From an uncultured bacterium (GTDB taxonomy: Bacteria > Patescibacteriota > Minisyncoccia > Phycocordibacterales > UBA918), in contig CAJXAG010000002.1 of NCBI GenBank assembly GCA_913050645.1, positions 1-42,348 on the forward strand: a DNA stretch of 42,348 nt. Direction: 5' to 3'. The notes beneath the pieces were generated by a model. That model saw nothing but the letters and a program-made list of their open reading frames with translations, did not search any database and was not told where the DNA came from. The position numbers were made by a program, and so were the translations under genes. This document shows positions 21,397 through 27,988 of the stretch, one piece after another (positions within the stretch are counted from its first letter, which is position 1; each line of letters starts with the position of its first letter).

Positions 21397-21468
21397 GGTC
21401 CCATCGTCTAACGGCTAGGACACATGGTTCTCATCCATGAAATCGGGGTTCGATTCCCCGTGGGATCA
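21397..21468 (+). tRNA. tRNA-Glu (anticodon CUC)
   Basis: Hand-folded cloverleaf. Acceptor ggtccca/tgggatc, D-arm gtct..ggac, anticodon stem catgg/ccatg with loop ttCTCat, T-arm cgggg-ttcgatt-ccccg, discriminator A. CCA is not encoded. The D-arm is very like bacterial tRNA-Glu. Confidence 0.9.
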
Positions 21469-21477
21469 CTTGACAAA

Positions 21478-21536: not shown

Positions 21537-21551
21537 TCAAGTGATCCCACG
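21537..21551 (-). repeat. inverted copy of the tRNA-Glu 3' end plus trailer
   Basis: tcaagtgatcccacg is the reverse complement of cgtgggatcacttga (21459-21473). Confidence 0.8.
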
Positions 21552-21779
21552 AGCAACCTGCTGGGAGCTGGTTGCGCGGGGATCGAAAAGCTTTTGAGGT
21601 AGATTGGGAGTGAAACGAACCAATGTATCCAAAAGGTATACTGCTCCCGTAGGGAGAGATTCCTCGTGGTCATCTCTTTCGAGTCCTTACAGGACCTGTT
21701 CAGGTTGTCGCTGTTTTGGTTTGCATTCGTTCCAAAACAACAGGCAACCTTCTGAAACAGTGTAGTGACACTGTTTCAG

Positions 21780-21793
21780 CCCCGTGGGATCAC
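21780..21793 (+). repeat. direct copy of the tRNA-Glu 3' end (att-like)
   Basis: ccccgtgggatcac is identical to 21456-21469. Confidence 0.8.
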
Positions 21794-21916: not shown

Positions 21917-22180
21917 CTACCACTTCAATCTGTAGCCAGGTTTGTTACGGCTTATAAAGGAATTTAGACCATCGCCATTTATGGCTAGGACTTTCATGTG
22001 TTCAACATTCGAAGATCCTGCACTAGAATATGTATATTCGTAGTGCTGACAACTTCCAGATTTGAACTTCACTGTGATGCTGTCGCATTCAATCGCGAAA
22101 GCTTCCACGTTTGAATCGTGATCAATATCGGCATATATCTGCATAGTCAGTATATTCGTTATTGATTGAGTCGGTATCAC
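21917..22180 (-). CDS. KTSC domain-containing protein
   Basis: SNVEAFAIECDSITVKFKSGSCQHYEYTY...GLNSFISRNKPGY fits the KTSC pattern (SxNI..xxYD...L.V.F..G..Y.Y...., G.yfn..I). The track start is GTG 22180; ATG 22144 is an alternative. Confidence 0.55.
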   Translation of the reverse strand: MIPTQSITNILTMQIYADIDHDSNVEAFAIECDSITVKFKSGSCQHYEYTYSSAGSSNVEHMKVLAINGDGLNSFISRNKPGYRLKW

Positions 22181-22262
22181 TAAACACCGTCGTATTGACG
22201 TAGATTCAGCTCTACAAAATCACACCCTTGTAGCAAGATTTTTCTAGTACACATATCGGCCT

Positions 22263-22447
22263 GAAGTGGAAGTGGAGTAACCTTCTCCAGGAGTCCATGC
22301 GATAAGCACAAGTATAACAAATGGGTATTTATCCAGATTTTGGACGTGGTATTGGCTTTTTAAGTGAAAAAGAGAGATTCCAAAACATATATATCAAAAA
22401 ATAGGCACATATAATGCCGTATTTTAAAGGAATTCCACTTCCACTTC
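22263..22447. repeat. 14-bp perfect inverted repeat pair separated by 157 bp
   Basis: gaagtggaagtgga (22263-22276) and tccacttccacttc (22434-22447). Each arm is itself a tandem GAAGTG repeat. Confidence 0.7.
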
Positions 22448-22568
22448 TTACGTATGAGTATATACCCATAGGTAAAAATAAAAAATGAAATATGGGGATA
22501 AGTACCTTTTTGCTGTGGATAAGTTGCAAGAAAAATGAGTTACGCAACATGAATAGAGGTCTGTACAT
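22329..22568 (-). CDS. possible small membrane protein (79 aa)
   Basis: An open frame of 79 codons in very AT-rich DNA with a hydrophobic product. No RBS or homology is recognised, and one arm of the inverted repeat lies inside it. Confidence 0.25.
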   Translation of the reverse strand: MYRPLFMLRNSFFLQLIHSKKVLIPIFHFLFLPMGIYSYVRSGSGIPLKYGIICAYFLIYMFWNLSFSLKKPIPRPKSG

Positions 22569-22726
22569 ATATTAAAGAAGTCTCTGTCTTGGTTTGACTT
22601 CTGTACCATGGCATTACAAAAGTAAAGGTTTAGGCCTCAAATTGTCCTTAGATCATAACGCAACTATTGCGCAGTTGTAATTTTCGGAGTATTGTCTGAG
22701 TTGAGTTAATTAATACCATAAATATA

Positions 22727-23602
22727 ATGCCAAGAACATTAGAACAGGGATTTGGTGATTTCCATTCAAAATTAAAGTTGGTTAAAACCGAATCTGAAGC
22801 TGTTAAAAGCCATAGATCTTCAATTGAGACCTGCCTCAAGAATAATTTTGGCATGAATCGTTTCTTCCGCACTGGTTCAATTGGTAATGGTACTAATGTG
22901 AATGGATTCAGTGATACTGATTATTTTGCAGGGATACACAGAGAGAATCTGAGAGATAATTCGGCAACTACACTTAGGCAGGTAAAGGAAGTGCTCGAAA
23001 ATAGATTTTCGACAACGGCAGGAATACGAGTCGATAGTCCAGCTGTGGTAATTCCATTTGGCACAAGTGCGTCTGAAACAACAGAAATCATACCCGCTGA
23101 TTACTTGAGAACTACAAGTGGTGTAAATATATACGATATCCCAGACGGTAAAGGTGGCTGGATGCAGGCAAGTCCAAAAGCCCATAAGGATTATGTGACA
23201 GATATAAATGCAAAACTCAGCTATAAAGTGAAGCCCCTTATTAGGTTTGTGAAGGCTTGGAAGTTTTATAACAATGTTCCAGTTTCGTCATTCTATTTGG
23301 AAATGAGAGTCGCAAAATTCGCTTCATCTGAAACCTCAATAGCATACTCTATAGATTTGAGAAGTATCTTCAAGCATTTGGTCGATATAGATCTAGCTGC
23401 AATGAATAACCCTGCTGGAATTCCAGGTTCAACCCAGGCATGTAGATCTGCTGCTGCCAAAGTTGAAGCTATGTCAAAACTAAATACAGCTTTACGAAGA
23501 GCGAACAATGCACGAGATTGTGAATCAAGCGGGAATATTAAAGATGCATTTTACTGGTGGAATTTATTATTTGATCACAACTTTACTTCTTACTACTATT
23601 AA
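22727..23602 (+). CDS. SMODS/CD-NTase-like nucleotidyltransferase
   Basis: Pol-beta NTase core: TGSIGNGT (G50-S51), then FSDTDYF (D63xD65), a third acidic strand ETTEIIPAD, then W..ASPKAH and LIRFVKAWK...SSFYLEMRV. An N-terminal helix precedes the core, as in SMODS/CD-NTases. Confidence 0.7.
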   Translation: MPRTLEQGFGDFHSKLKLVKTESEAVKSHRSSIETCLKNNFGMNRFFRTGSIGNGTNVNGFSDTDYFAGIHRENLRDNSATTLRQVKEVLENRFSTTAGIRVDSPAVVIPFGTSASETTEIIPADYLRTTSGVNIYDIPDGKGGWMQASPKAHKDYVTDINAKLSYKVKPLIRFVKAWKFYNNVPVSSFYLEMRVAKFASSETSIAYSIDLRSIFKHLVDIDLAAMNNPAGIPGSTQACRSAAAKVEAMSKLNTALRRANNARDCESSGNIKDAFYWWNLLFDHNFTSYYY

Positions 23603-23604
23603 AA

Positions 23605-24480
23605 ATGAACATTATCACTACTCACCAAAATGAAGTCGAGTGTATTGATCGACTCGCTGCACAAAGATTTGCTTATGCCAAGGCAAAACAAATTTTCATA
23701 GTTAGAATTTCGATATCAACACTCTTTGCTGTGTTTGGGACTATGTTGATGGTCAGCATTGAGGAAACAAAGTTGTATATAGCAATTGCTGCGATTTTTT
23801 ACACAATGATCGATATTTTTTTACTAAGAAACATAGAAAATACATACAGAAGAGACGGGGCAAAAATCCAAGAGTTGTTTGATACCGGACTTTTTGGTCT
23901 TGAATGGAATCATTTAGTTGCTGGGAGTGTTCCAGAAAATGAAAAAGTTTGTCTCTATAATCAGCAATACCGACAAAAAAACGATATAGAGAACTTATTT
24001 AACTGGTATCCTGGCGATGTTGCTGAGCTAAGTCTTGAACAAGCAGCACTTGTGTGCCAGAGGACAAATATTTGGTGGGATGTGACTCTTCGGCAGAAAA
24101 TGTTTTGGTTGATTACTTTTGGTTTATTAGGTTTAACATTCATGCTATTCATTTTTTTTCACGGAAGTTCCCATCTATTGCTGACAGTTATTGTGACCCT
24201 ACTGCCACTCTATGAAGTATTGTGTGATTATGCCAGATCGCAATACTTGTCTATAAGCAAGATTAAGGAACTTCAGAGTAAAATTGAAGAAAGAATTGAA
24301 AGGGTGACTGGTGGAGAGTCTGTCTTACAGAGTCAACTTCGAACAATTCAGGATGAAATATTTAGACACAGAGAGAGTTGTTTGTTTGTTCCAGACTGGT
24401 TTTATTTTTTCTTTAGAGGTAAACAGGAAGAACAAATGAACTATGCTGCTTCACATTATGTTTCTAGATTCAGAAAATAG
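23605..24480 (+). CDS. 4-TM membrane protein, putative effector (S-4TM/SLATT-like)
   Basis: Starts 2 nt after the NTase stop. Hydrophobic segments lie at about aa 30-50, 56-74, 166-185 and 190-207, with a soluble loop between the pairs and a C-terminal coiled coil. This architecture matches SMODS-associated TM effectors. Confidence 0.55.
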   Translation: MNIITTHQNEVECIDRLAAQRFAYAKAKQIFIVRISISTLFAVFGTMLMVSIEETKLYIAIAAIFYTMIDIFLLRNIENTYRRDGAKIQELFDTGLFGLEWNHLVAGSVPENEKVCLYNQQYRQKNDIENLFNWYPGDVAELSLEQAALVCQRTNIWWDVTLRQKMFWLITFGLLGLTFMLFIFFHGSSHLLLTVIVTLLPLYEVLCDYARSQYLSISKIKELQSKIEERIERVTGGESVLQSQLRTIQDEIFRHRESCLFVPDWFYFFFRGKQEEQMNYAASHYVSRFRK

Positions 24481-24542
24481 CACCGCAGCTTGAATAGAGG
24501 TATAAATTTGGTTTTAATTCGCACTACTTAGGGCCACATAGT

Positions 24543-24570
24543 AAAAACATCAGCGGAACTGGTGTTTTTG
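24543..24570 (+). terminator. rho-independent terminator of the NTase/4TM operon
   Basis: aaaaacatcag (24543-24553) cggaa ctggtgttttt (24559-24569). There is one G-U pair, valid only on the plus strand. Confidence 0.7.
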
Positions 24571-24622
24571 GATAAAAGGTCTATTCTAAAACCATTACCA
24601 CCGGGAAAGGAATAGCTGTCGG

Positions 24623-24638
24623 AAAAAAAAGGGGGGGG
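24623..24638 (+). repeat. A8G8 homopolymer tract
   Basis: aaaaaaaagggggggg lies 60 nt upstream of the methyltransferase ATG. A G8 run is very unusual in this AT-rich island. Confidence 0.9.
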
Positions 24639-24698
24639 TGATTGGTAACTACGATGTAAATTGAGTAAAGTGCTCGCAGATGCTAATCTTTATTTGGT

Positions 24699-25739
24699 AT
24701 GGCCACAAAAACTTTAAATACAGCATTGAATAAAGCAGGTAAAGCAAAAAACGACGAGTTTTACACTCAACTCGTTGATATTGAAAAAGAACTTAAGCAC
24801 TACAAAGAACAGTTTCGTGGAAAGGTTGTGTATTGTAACTGTGACGATCCTTTTGAGAGTAATTTCTTTAAATATTTTGCGGCTAATTTTAATACGTTAG
24901 GGATCAAGAAGCTCATTAGTACGAGCTTTGTTAAATCGCCTATTGCAGGTGGTCAGTTACCATTGTTTGAAGTTAAGGGACTTAAGCCTGACGGGAAACA
25001 ACCGTTCAAAATTGAAATTACAGAAGTTACGGACATAGATGGAGACGGCGCTATTGATCTTGATGACGTCAAGAATTTGCTAAGGAGTAATAAAAACACT
25101 GCGACACCTCTTCTGGAGAATGGTGATTTCAGAAGTGCGGAGTGCATTGAATTGCTCAAAGAAGCAGATATTGTTGTTACGAATCCACCATTTTCACTAT
25201 TTCGTGAATATGTAGCACAACTAATTGAACATAATAAAAAATTCTTGATTCTTGGTGACCAGAACGCAATCACTTACAAAGAAACTTTTGGTTACATCAA
25301 AGATGACAAATTGTGGCTTGGCTATGACAACGGTGGGACTAAATGGTTTCAGGTTCCCGATGATTACGATATACAGACAGAATCAAGAAAGAAGATTGAA
25401 GATGGAGTCAAATATTTCAGTATGGGGAGAATTGTATGGTTTACAAACTTAGATACAACCAAGCGACACAACAACATTGACCTGTATAAACAGTATTCAC
25501 CCGAAGAATTTCCTAAATACGACAATTATGATGTGATCAACGTTAATAAGGTGTCTGATATTCCCAAAGATTATGACGGAGTAATGGGTGTACCGATTAC
25601 ATTTGTTGATAAATATAGCCCAAAGCAGTTTGAGATATTAGGTTTAGCCAACTCTGCAAGATGGATTGGTTATGAATGCTATACCATTATTCAAGAGAGG
25701 AAAATATACAACCGAATCATAATAAAGCGACAGAAATAA
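24699..25739 (+). CDS. N6-adenine DNA methyltransferase (EcoRI-methylase-like family)
   Basis: The N-terminal KNDEFYTQLVDIEKEL...GKVVYCNCDDP..SNFFKYF block and the catalytic IVVTNPPFSLF (NPPF, motif IV) are typical of the EcoRI_methylase family. Confidence 0.8.
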   Translation: MATKTLNTALNKAGKAKNDEFYTQLVDIEKELKHYKEQFRGKVVYCNCDDPFESNFFKYFAANFNTLGIKKLISTSFVKSPIAGGQLPLFEVKGLKPDGKQPFKIEITEVTDIDGDGAIDLDDVKNLLRSNKNTATPLLENGDFRSAECIELLKEADIVVTNPPFSLFREYVAQLIEHNKKFLILGDQNAITYKETFGYIKDDKLWLGYDNGGTKWFQVPDDYDIQTESRKKIEDGVKYFSMGRIVWFTNLDTTKRHNNIDLYKQYSPEEFPKYDNYDVINVNKVSDIPKDYDGVMGVPITFVDKYSPKQFEILGLANSARWIGYECYTIIQERKIYNRIIIKRQK

Positions 25740-25740
25740 T

Positions 25741-26832
25741 ATGAAAATTGAACTAAACAGGATCAAAATACGCGAGGTAATTGACAGCTACTCAGACAAT
25801 GCTGAAGAAGGCGTCGTTGCTTACGGGGGCAAACTTGATGTTCGTCCAAAATATCAGCGAGAGTTTGTATATAAAGGCGACCAACGCGATGCTGTTCTTG
25901 AAACTGTCAAACAAAATTTCCCGCTAAACGTTATGTACTGGGTGGTCAAAGAAGATGGAGGCTACGAAGTTTTGGATGGGCAGCAGCGCACTATCAGTAT
26001 TGGTCAGTACGTAAACGGTGATTTTTCTCTTGATGATCGCTACTTCGGAAATCTAACACAGGAAGAAAAAGATCAGATTCTTGATTATGAGTTGATGATT
26101 TATTTCTGTGAAGGAAACGACAAGGAGCGGTTGGACTGGTTCAAAACTATCAACATCGCAGGCGAACGTCTAACAGATCAGGAACTACGCAATGCAGTTT
26201 ACACAGGACCATGGCTGTCCGATGCGAAACTAAAATTCAGTAAATCTAATTGTGTCGCATATCTTGTCGCAAATGATGGTGGCTCACTTCTCAAGGGTTC
26301 TCCGATTAGACAGGAATATTTGGAAACTGCACTTTCATGGATAAACAATGACGAAGTGGCAGACTACATGGCAAAACATCAGCACGATAAAAACGCTGAT
26401 GAGTTATGGGAGTATTTCCAAAACGTAATCGCATGGGTGCGAGATACTTTCACAAACTATCGAAAAGAGATGTCGGGCGTGAACTGGGGAGAACTATGTA
26501 ACGAATTTAGCGATAAAAAACTTAACCCAGTCAAACTAGAAGAAGAAATCGCCAAGTTGATGCAAGATGAAGATGTTTCTAAAAAGTCTGGTATTTACCC
26601 TTATGTTCTAACTCGACAAGAAAAGCACCTTAATATTCGCTCATTCAACGACAAAATGAAACGTGAGGCATACGAACGCCAAAAAGGAATTTGTACAAAA
26701 TGTGGAGAGCATTTTGAGATCGGAGAAATGGAAGCAGACCACATCACCCCATGGCACGAGGGCGGCAAAACTATCGTAGAAAATTGCCAGATGTTGTGCA
26801 AGCAAGACAACCGTACGAAGTCTGGGAAGTAA
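25741..26832 (+). CDS. DUF262 (ParB/GmrSD N-terminal-like) - HNH endonuclease fusion
   Basis: RPKYQREFVY and LDGQQRT are the DUF262 signature. The C-terminus CTKCGEHFEIGEMEADHITPWHEGGKTIVENCQMLCKQDNRTK is a canonical HNH. The ATG lies 1 nt after the MTase stop. Confidence 0.8.
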   Translation: MKIELNRIKIREVIDSYSDNAEEGVVAYGGKLDVRPKYQREFVYKGDQRDAVLETVKQNFPLNVMYWVVKEDGGYEVLDGQQRTISIGQYVNGDFSLDDRYFGNLTQEEKDQILDYELMIYFCEGNDKERLDWFKTINIAGERLTDQELRNAVYTGPWLSDAKLKFSKSNCVAYLVANDGGSLLKGSPIRQEYLETALSWINNDEVADYMAKHQHDKNADELWEYFQNVIAWVRDTFTNYRKEMSGVNWGELCNEFSDKKLNPVKLEEEIAKLMQDEDVSKKSGIYPYVLTRQEKHLNIRSFNDKMKREAYERQKGICTKCGEHFEIGEMEADHITPWHEGGKTIVENCQMLCKQDNRTKSGK

Positions 26833-26915
26833 AATCATTGAGAATGAATAGCAATGAGAACAAAAATAAGAAATTTGAAAGCAAGCTCTAGTGGTCAGAA
26901 ATTATTTGAAAAAAT

Positions 26916-27046
26916 ATGGATGATGAACTAAAAGAAATAATGGAAGACTACGACCTTGAGGAGGGTGAAGCCAGGAAGTTCAAGATCTTGTTGATGAGCT
27001 AGGGGTCGACACGGACGATGCTCATGAGATCTGGGAGGCTATGTAG
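26916..27046 (+). pseudogene. frameshifted mini-ORF for a small acidic peptide
   Basis: MDDELKEIMEDYDLEEGEA... stops at TAG 27000. A second frame continues as QEVQDLVDELGVDTDDAHEIWEAM to TAG 27044-27046. The two halves look like one acidic helical peptide. Confidence 0.25.
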
Positions 27047-27280: not shown

Positions 27281-27988
27281 ATGACAAAGAAATTCATAGG
27301 GATGTGGGATGTTCACAAAGAGTTACAAAGTGACAATCCCGAAGTTATCGGTGAGGTCAGTAAAACGATTGCTGGTGATATAAACACAAAAATTAAGAAC
27401 AAGCAGGTAAACACCACGGTCTACACACAAAAAATGCAAGACGCGATCTACTTCGCAGTCAAAACACACGAGGTCTACCAGAAACAAAAGCGCAAAGGGA
27501 AGGATGTGCCGTATATCACGCACCCGCTCATTGTAGGGTTGATCTTAGCAAAAGCTGGGGCGAGTGAGGATGTGGTCACTGCAGGAATCCTCCACGATAC
27601 AATCGAAGATAGTGTTGATGAAAAACAGGTTACTAAAGAAATGTTGGCTGAGCGTTTTGGGGAAGGAGTAGCGGAGCTTGTCAGTGCGGTTTCTGAGAAA
27701 GATAAGTCGCTTTCGTGGCACGAGCGCAAGGAGCAGGCGCTTGAGGAGATCAAACAGTTCTCCCACGATGAGCTACTGCTGAAGTCGGGCGATGTGGTGA
27801 GTAACCTCACTGAGATCATTGGTGACTACAGTCGCGACGGTGATGCGACCTTCGACCGATTCAACGCCACAAAAGAAGACACGCTCGTACATTCAAAGCT
27901 GGTTATCGAAACGATCCTCGGCGCATGGGATGAAAACCCACTTGCGGTGGACTTACGCATAATCAAAGAAAAGCTCGCGGAGATGTAA
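27281..27988 (+). CDS. HD-domain (p)ppGpp hydrolase, small alarmone hydrolase (RelA/SpoT HD_4 type)
   Basis: KTHEVYQKQKRKGKDVPYITHPLIVGLILAKAGASEDVVTAGILHDTIEDS...FGEGVAELVSAVSE matches the SpoT/Mesh1 hydrolase block (H..Q.R..G.PYI.HPL.VA.IL...D....AA.LHD..ED). There is no synthetase domain. Confidence 0.8.
   Translation: MTKKFIGMWDVHKELQSDNPEVIGEVSKTIAGDINTKIKNKQVNTTVYTQKMQDAIYFAVKTHEVYQKQKRKGKDVPYITHPLIVGLILAKAGASEDVVTAGILHDTIEDSVDEKQVTKEMLAERFGEGVAELVSAVSEKDKSLSWHERKEQALEEIKQFSHDELLLKSGDVVSNLTEIIGDYSRDGDATFDRFNATKEDTLVHSKLVIETILGAWDENPLAVDLRIIKEKLAEM

Follow-up and report, generated by a model that had tools for sequence, protein, structure and literature searches.

Proteins in which the COG1479/DUF262 ParB-like domain is joined to HNH or other nucleases are frequent, as is its linkage to DNA-modification systems (Makarova et al., 2013; PMC3632139). 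In the Type IV enzymes GmrSD and BrxU, the DUF262 domain is N-terminal and ParB/Srx-like with a DGQQR motif, followed by a C-terminal His-Me finger nuclease, and the genes are found in a defence-island context (PMC8565348). Nucleotide binding and hydrolysis must come before DNA cleavage in BrxU (PMC8565348). The same combination of a DUF262 NTPase and an HNH-type nuclease occurs in SspE, the restriction arm of the self-marking Ssp phosphorothioate system, where the DGQQR arginine is indispensable to the GTP hydrolysis that licenses the HNH domain (PMC13251355). Here we compare with these systems a pair of adjacent genes from an uncultured bacterium (Patescibacteriota; Minisyncoccia; Phycocordibacterales; UBA918; assembly GCA_913050645.1, contig CAJXAG010000002.1). 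The whole stretch that was analysed, positions 1 to 42,348 of the forward strand, is referred to as the window. The pair consists of an EcoRI-family N6-adenine DNA methyltransferase (hereafter methylase) and, downstream of it, a DUF262-HNH nuclease. We posit that these two genes probably constitute a Type II-style restriction-modification (R-M) cassette, the nuclease of which is blocked by methylation.

Both genes are located on the plus strand. The methylase (346 amino acids, 24699-25739) belongs to its family over its full length, with the Pfam model PF13651 (EcoRI_methylase) covering residues 10-320 (E=1.5e-134) and the PADLOC model MTase_II (PDLC03297) covering residues 1-344 of 346 (E=4e-121). 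Motif IV of the methylase, NPPF (residues 162-165, nt 25182-25193), falls in the most conserved ten-residue block of the protein (0.99 identity to the window). The nuclease, a putative restriction endonuclease of 363 amino acids (25741-26832), is built of three parts. The ParB/Srx-like DUF262 (GmrSD_N) domain, which is predicted to bind nucleoside triphosphates (NTP), spans residues ~1-155 (25741-26205) and is recognized by PF03235 at residues 34-154 (E=1.9e-16). It is followed by a central all-helical domain (residues ~156-313, 26206-26679) and by a zinc-finger HNH (beta-beta-alpha-Me) nuclease domain (residues 314-363, 26680-26832) with a PF01844 match at residues 318-361 (E=2.6e-12). DUF1524 is absent among the Pfam matches of the nuclease. 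The TAA stop codon of the methylase (25737-25739) and the ATG of the nuclease (25741) are separated by one base (t, 25740), and this junction, TAAtATG (25737-25743, plus strand), is taken as a sign that translation of the nuclease is coupled to that of the methylase. Ribosomes that have just left the methylase probably go on to translate the nuclease, as it starts one base past the methylase stop. An earlier note on this DNA, made from the letters and a list of open reading frames (ORFs), had named the EcoRI-family m6A (N6-methyladenine) methyltransferase, the 1-nt gap, the DUF262 signatures KYQREFVY and DGQQRT, and a classical C-terminal HNH instead of DUF1524. All of these were borne out, with the two signatures at residues 37-44 and 79-84 of the nuclease.

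The linkage of the two genes was surveyed in two sets of loci. The genome set comprises 80 loci from species-representative genomes, chosen as the best matches to the nuclease (76-86% identical to the window) and distributed across Patescibacteria, Bdellovibrionales, Gammaproteobacteria, Flavobacteriaceae, Omnitrophota, Fidelibacterota and one archaeal bin. The viral set comprises 80 more divergent loci from IMG/VR (54-82% nuclease identity). In 78 of the 80 genome loci, the nuclease is preceded on its strand by an EcoRI-family methylase, and one of the two exceptions is a locus with just 463 bases of upstream sequence. Among the viral loci the methylase is directly upstream in 77 of 80, and two of the exceptions are cut by contig ends. 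Overall, the genes are adjacent in 155 of 160 loci, the exceptions being three loci at contig ends, one with reversed order and one true absence. The reversed order is found in the viral locus L161, where the methylase is immediately downstream of the nuclease. Junctions in the genome set (n=78) measure 1 nt in 47 loci (TAAnATG, TAGnATG or TGAnATG) and at most 5 nt in 67, with a 4-nt ATGA overlap in nine; among the viral loci, the ATGA overlap is the commonest junction (25/77). Since this short spacing recurs across the 78 genome loci, the abutment in the window is more than chance, and the two genes form a co-evolving module rather than being neighbours by accident. The objection that homologues of the nuclease might not be linked to methylases elsewhere does not hold, the linkage being near-universal.

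The module is also widespread beyond these loci. More than 8000 homologues of the nuclease were found, and of the clusters formed at 50% identity, about 500 score E<=1e-30. Annotated plasmid copies of the pair come from Ligilactobacillus agilis (7.5 kb), Macrococcoides canis and Moraxella osloensis (38% identity), as well as from Leuconostoc, Apilactobacillus, Variovorax, Gordonia and others. Flavobacterium phage vB_FspS_laban6-1 carries it with 37% identity and a 4-nt overlap, and an identical nuclease in the same gene order is present on marine-metagenome contigs from Tara Oceans.

The intergenic junction between methylase and nuclease is an insertion hotspot. Insertions of 0.4-1.9 kb occur in about 10 of the 78 genome loci and in a similar share of the viral loci. 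In the eight such genome loci that were inspected (L005, L007, L012, L046, L049, L053, L061 and L063) the inserted genes encode T5orf172/MUG113 (GIY-YIG-like), RhuM, Bro-N or DUF2130 proteins, or are unassigned ORFs. T5orf172, RhuM, Bro-N and DUF2130 genes are accessories that Type I R-M operons characteristically contain, and as such they place the module among the R-M systems. Two further variants of the module were observed. In L142, two tandem EcoRI-family methylases precede the nuclease, and in L019 and L167 the methylase is frameshifted next to an intact nuclease, which could be an assembly error or decay.

In order to identify the conserved residues of the nuclease, the window protein was aligned with 51 relatives sharing 34-94% identity with it (52 sequences). 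The motifs of the nucleotide site are Q39-R40 (QREF) and D79-G80-Q81-Q82-R83 (DGQQR, nt 25975-25989), and the HNH block has the arrangement C318-x2-C321 ... D333-H334 (nt 26737-26742) ... N348 ... C353 ... N357. Invariant across the alignment are Q39, R40, D79, G80, R83, N138, Q147, E148, N151, W232, F237, C318, G342 and N348, while Q81, Q82, D333, H334 and C353 are at least 90% conserved. Conserved residues of the helical domain are R190, Q191, W200, W232, F237 and W249. In a residue-by-residue alignment, D333, H334, N348 and N357 correspond to D53, H54, N68 and N77 of Gme HNH (4h9d), which have been summarized as critical residues (PMC4619093). The conservation across the 52 proteins indicates that the ParB/Srx-like nucleotide site and the HNH centre are both under selection. 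Degeneration of the HNH centre, which would have spoken against an active enzyme, was not seen, its catalytic residues being invariant or at least 90% conserved. The strict conservation of DGQQR and QREF further suggests that NTP is involved. Position 356 (nt 26806-26808), the fourth zinc ligand next to the cysteines C318, C321 and C353, is Asp in the clade of about 80% identity to which the window protein belongs and Cys in the majority of the distant relatives, a few of which have His or Ala; we regard the Asp/Cys change as a minor variation.

An AlphaFold2 model computed from the 52-sequence alignment (mean pLDDT, the predicted local distance difference test score, 90.7) consists of an alpha/beta part (residues ~1-155), an all-helical part (~157-313) and a beta-beta-alpha HNH part (314-363). 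A Foldseek search of this model against the PDB returned no match at E<=1e-3, and its weak partial matches are the ParB/Noc CTPases (6sdk, 7ol9), BrxU (7p9k), Gme HNH (4h9d) and EcoKMcrA (6ghc). Sequence and profile searches of the PDB recovered only generic HNH domains and a weak match to the DUF262 domain of BrxU (7p9k). Apart from the latter, these PDB searches found no similarity to solved structures outside the HNH core, and no template for the whole protein or for the helical domain. No Pfam model matches the helical middle domain, and we infer that it is probably a DNA-binding or specificity domain. Among viral models (BFVD), the best matches are GmrSD_N proteins of giant viruses (template modelling score about 0.5, E down to 1e-10); Catovirus, Indivirus, Hokovirus and Yasminevirus encode such proteins of the same size (364-482 amino acids).

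According to PADLOC-DB 2.0, the family is already catalogued. The REase_II model PDLC03418 aligns with the nuclease from residue 1 to 363 (profile positions 1-372, E=2.7e-138), so that, together with MTase_II, both proteins are matched end to end in the comparison that the earlier note had called for. Given these full-length matches, a defence-annotation tool would already call the pair Type II R-M. The other PADLOC matches of the nuclease are confined to the DUF262 core or are marginal, with no strong Type IV model among them. The name given by NCBI's annotation pipeline (PGAP) is just "DUF262 domain-containing protein", and NCBIfam holds no family-level model for either the methylase or the nuclease. 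HNH-type R-M enzymes in two publications (PMC8989522; PMC11473606) were considered as candidate descriptions of the family and rejected, as they concern unrelated proteins. The earlier note had presented the pair as "not a textbook system". As a claim of novelty this is overstated, since a PADLOC restriction endonuclease model exists and DUF262-HNH fusions were noted in 2013 (PMC3632139). The window pair is an ordinary, intact member of a catalogued family and not a new kind of system.

Comparison with the EcoRI system shows that one half of the cassette is familiar. Both systems have a methylase of PF13651 over the full length, and both are two-gene R-M cassettes found on small plasmids. The nuclease, in contrast, combines a ParB fold with HNH and is unrelated to R.EcoRI, the fold of which is PD-(D/E)XK. 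The window methylase shows 46% full-length identity to that of the Klebsiella michiganensis plasmid NZ_CP058125.1, which adjoins a gene annotated as "EcoRI family type II restriction endonuclease". The gene order differs, being methylase followed by nuclease with a 1-nt junction here and endonuclease followed by methylase on NZ_CP058125.1. M.EcoRI-type proteins are 46-58% identical to 71 methylases that are linked to DUF262-HNH nucleases. The latter have a mean mutual identity of 63% and form, in a neighbour-joining tree, a clade that excludes the EcoRI-type proteins, with the M.EcoRI-type methylases as nearest outgroup.

On the side of the nuclease, the resemblance is to the DUF262 enzymes introduced above, but the differences are considerable. 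The nuclease module is a PF01844 HNH with a CxxC zinc finger rather than the DUF1524 of GmrSD and BrxU, and the protein is smaller (~360 amino acids compared with ~590 in BrxU). GmrSD enzymes are solitary and modification-dependent, whereas the nuclease described here has a methylase partner in essentially every testable locus. SspE relies on a phosphorothioate mark that is set by SspABCD, while a single methylase is predicted to set N6-methyladenine here, and SspE is much the larger enzyme. The DUF262 core is shared, moreover, with NsnA of Menshen (NsnABC; PADLOC E=2.4e-24, residues 30-158) and with PD-T4-2_A (PADLOC E=4.4e-09, residues 30-93). Menshen differs in that its NsnA lacks HNH and carries DNA-binding modules at the N-terminus (PMC12065111), and neither NsnB nor NsnC is found near the window pair, the neighbours of which are genes of a cyclic oligonucleotide-based antiphage signalling system (CBASS) and an HD-domain gene. 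Among Type II restriction endonucleases, KpnI, Hpy99I and MnlI are of the HNH type. They have in common with the family described here the beta-beta-alpha-Me module, cysteine zinc ligands and a gene next to that of a methylase, and they are methylation-blocked, as we posit for the nuclease of the window. To our knowledge, none of the enzymes of this type has a ParB/Srx-like NTPase domain, and they need a divalent metal alone.

In our proposed mechanism, the methylase would mark the host DNA with m6A at its own site. Ribosomes ending the methylase would reinitiate on the nuclease, so that no nuclease would be made without methylase, and the methylase-first order is what is expected if the methylase must precede the nuclease. 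Incoming DNA that is unmethylated would be cut by the nuclease, and methylated host DNA would be spared. That cleavage is blocked by methylation is suggested by the conserved methylase-nuclease module with its intact sites. Within the nuclease, the helical middle domain would read the DNA and the zinc-finger HNH would cut it, while nucleotide binding or hydrolysis in the DUF262 domain would most likely license the HNH, by analogy with BrxU and SspE. We see about equal chances for and against such NTP gating. The orthodox definition of Type II calls for Mg2+ only, and a confirmed NTP requirement would place the enzyme outside it. A more specific proposal, which we hold only tentatively, is that the DUF262-HNH protein may mirror GmrSD and BrxU, as a ParB/Srx-fold restriction endonuclease that is gated by NTP and reads the lack of m6A. 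This could be achieved by a ParB-like nucleotide-driven clamp or switch, or by a cycle of recognition, hydrolysis and activation as in SspE.

Several observations weigh against a methylation-blocked Type II-style nuclease. All characterized DUF262 nucleases (GmrSD, BrxU and SspE) depend on DNA modification, and none is blocked by it (PMC4619093; PMC8565348; PMC12707154; PMC13251355). Our literature search found no paper that characterizes a DUF262-HNH enzyme paired with an EcoRI-family methylase, and a search for methylome motifs yielded nothing usable either. The PADLOC REase_II model may have been built from characterized or from only putative REBASE entries, REBASE being cited solely in the reference lists of the PADLOC papers. 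In one genome locus of 10 kb (L006), neither the 3.3 kb upstream of the nuclease nor the 6 kb downstream of it contains a methylase. Palindrome avoidance does not single out the EcoRI site either. Using maximal-order Markov expectations for the window, the 80 genome loci (0.86 Mb) and the 80 viral loci (0.69 Mb), GAATTC ranks 17th of 64 in the genome loci (observed/expected 0.76) and 32nd of 64 in the viral loci (0.71), and many six-base palindromes are mildly depleted.

The evolutionary rates of the two proteins also belong to these observations. Restriction endonucleases usually evolve faster than their methylases. Among 71 methylase-nuclease pairs, however, the mean pairwise identity is 80% for the nuclease and 63% for the methylase, and the two identities correlate weakly (r=0.17). 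Because the genome loci were picked as the best nuclease matches, identity to the query is inflated, while identity among the loci is less affected. A nuclease that is more conserved than its methylase, together with the weak correlation, is atypical of cognate Type II pairs, and the slower evolution of the nuclease is the most unusual property of the family. Recent horizontal transfer was rejected as the cause of this conservation, since four-fold degenerate sites are saturated, with only ~32% (nuclease) and ~30% (methylase) identical to the window. This saturation of the synonymous sites indicates that the high protein identity of the nuclease reflects long-term purifying selection. The reversed rate pattern fits an enzyme with several coupled activities.

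Such selection would also fit a multi-step allosteric enzyme in which the methyl mark is sensed rather than avoided. The DUF262 domain would then detect the m6A of its partner on host DNA, NTP hydrolysis would follow, and the HNH would nick unmarked invading DNA, so that the methylase would be needed for activity and not merely for protection. SspE offers a precedent, as its "recognize-hydrolyze-activate" cycle acts on the host's own phosphorothioate mark (PMC13251355). The strictly conserved DGQQR and QREF motifs agree with this, and strict co-occurrence with the methylase gene is equally expected. The nuclease is, however, about half the size of SspE or BrxU (363 amino acids) and no mark-reading pocket has been identified in it; the methylase-first order with stop/start coupling is a classical guard against a toxic nuclease; and PADLOC files the family as Type II restriction endonucleases. 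With nothing that specifically favours mark sensing over mark blocking, we consider this explanation unlikely.

Somewhat less likely still is a primarily selfish or mobile role, in which the pair would act as an addiction cassette (post-segregational killing) or as a weapon of phages and plasmids and would have reached the window genome by hitch-hiking. It is in line with the occurrence of the pair on plasmids as small as 7.5-10 kb, in one phage and among numerous IMG/VR contigs, with the selfish-looking T5orf172 and Bro-N genes inserted between the two genes, and with the position of the window pair in a low-GC islet next to a tRNA gene. Such a role would nevertheless involve the same R-M biochemistry with another beneficiary, and neither role rules out the other. 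With synonymous sites saturated at 80% protein identity, long-term purifying selection is indicated and not the recent sweep of a single element. The least probable explanation is a Type IV, GmrSD-like nuclease directed against modified phage DNA next to an unrelated orphan, decoy or protective methylase: the biochemically characterized DUF262 nucleases are all modification-dependent (PMC4619093; PMC8565348; PMC12707154) and PADLOC mREase_IV gives a very weak match in the HNH region (E=0.007), but enzymes of this kind need no cognate methylase, whereas here, down to 37% identity, practically all testable loci have one adjoining the nuclease with the junction kept at 1 nt or overlapping, the GmrSD-defining DUF1524 module is absent, and a nuclease that depends on m6A would be suicidal if coupled to an m6A methylase.

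Of the two interpretations given in the earlier note, an R-M pair with a methylation-blocked DUF262-HNH enzyme is thus favoured by the near-universal linkage, the conserved HNH and DGQQR residues and the PADLOC models, and a modification-dependent nuclease with a decoy methylase found no support. Regarding the site at which such an R-M pair would act, GAATTC or a related site with an AATT core is plausible for the methylase, though only as a guess. The guess is reasonable because the M.EcoRI-type methylases, at 46-58% identity, are the nearest outgroup. The window holds three GAATTC sites, compared with 5.3 expected. An assignment of the recognition site from palindrome avoidance was dropped, as GAATTC is not distinctive.

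Upstream of the methylase gene, an A8G8 tract is located at 24623-24638, the G8 run of which ends 61 nt before the ATG. It is the sole G or C homopolymer of at least seven bases within the 42-kb window. A comparable G8 was found in 1 of 138 other loci (L130), at -59 and there within a hairpin. The tract could be a candidate phase-variable promoter element. Promoter and terminator scans around the operon gave matches that are no commoner than in shuffled sequence.

The genomic context of the pair supports a role in defence, as a CBASS operon lies immediately upstream in the same low-GC islet beside a tRNA gene. The operon is of type I and complete, and has the same orientation as the methylase. 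It consists of an oligonucleotide cyclase (22727-23602, plus strand; Pfam SMODS, PADLOC Cyclase E=8e-115) and an S_4TM membrane effector (23605-24480, plus strand; Pfam S_4TM, PADLOC 4TM effector E=5e-72), with stop and start 2 nt apart. The islet that holds CBASS and the R-M pair (22000-27000) has a GC content of 0.37-0.40, compared with 0.43-0.51 in the flanks, and tRNA-Glu(CTC), detected with ARAGORN and Rfam, lies beside it at 21397-21469. We read the interval of 22-27 kb as a small acquired defence islet. The ORF list and Pfam revealed no EcoRI-family endonuclease in it. Its flanks are of a housekeeping nature, with a penicillin-binding protein transpeptidase, Mur ligase and MraW upstream, and an FAD oxidase and a PIF1-like helicase downstream.

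Some smaller features surround the islet. The last 14 nt of the tRNA-Glu are repeated at 21780-21793, with a reverse complement near 21544-21554. These repeats could represent an old integration scar or a structured element; Rfam returned nothing at their positions. An imperfect direct repeat of 18 nt (16/18 matching; 22543-22560 and 24484-24501) brackets the CBASS operon almost exactly and could be the footprint of a module insertion or chance. Short direct repeats were dropped as island boundaries, being too short to interpret. Just downstream of the islet, a stand-alone protein of 235 amino acids with an HD_4/RelA-SpoT-like hydrolase domain (27281-27988) resembles a small alarmone hydrolase and is without a PADLOC match.

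Of the two-gene defence modules of uncultivated bacteria, the cassette is one of the more widespread, its carriers including Patescibacteria, Bdellovibrionales, Gammaproteobacteria, plasmids of Bacillota, and phages. Knowledge of its recognition site would be useful for transforming the many carriers of the pair among lactic-acid bacteria, staphylococcal relatives and candidate-phyla bacteria. The residual interest lies not in the existence of the pairing, but in the biochemistry of a very widespread and unusually conserved restriction nuclease of the ParB fold. Should cleavage be gated by its nucleotide site, the family would form a link between methylation-blocked restriction and the ParB-fold NTPase switches of the Type IV and Ssp systems. 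If the enzyme is an NTP-gated reader of the absence of m6A, a widespread "Type II" family would represent a mechanistically distinct class of R-M, and the slow evolution of the nuclease relative to its methylase would be accounted for as well.

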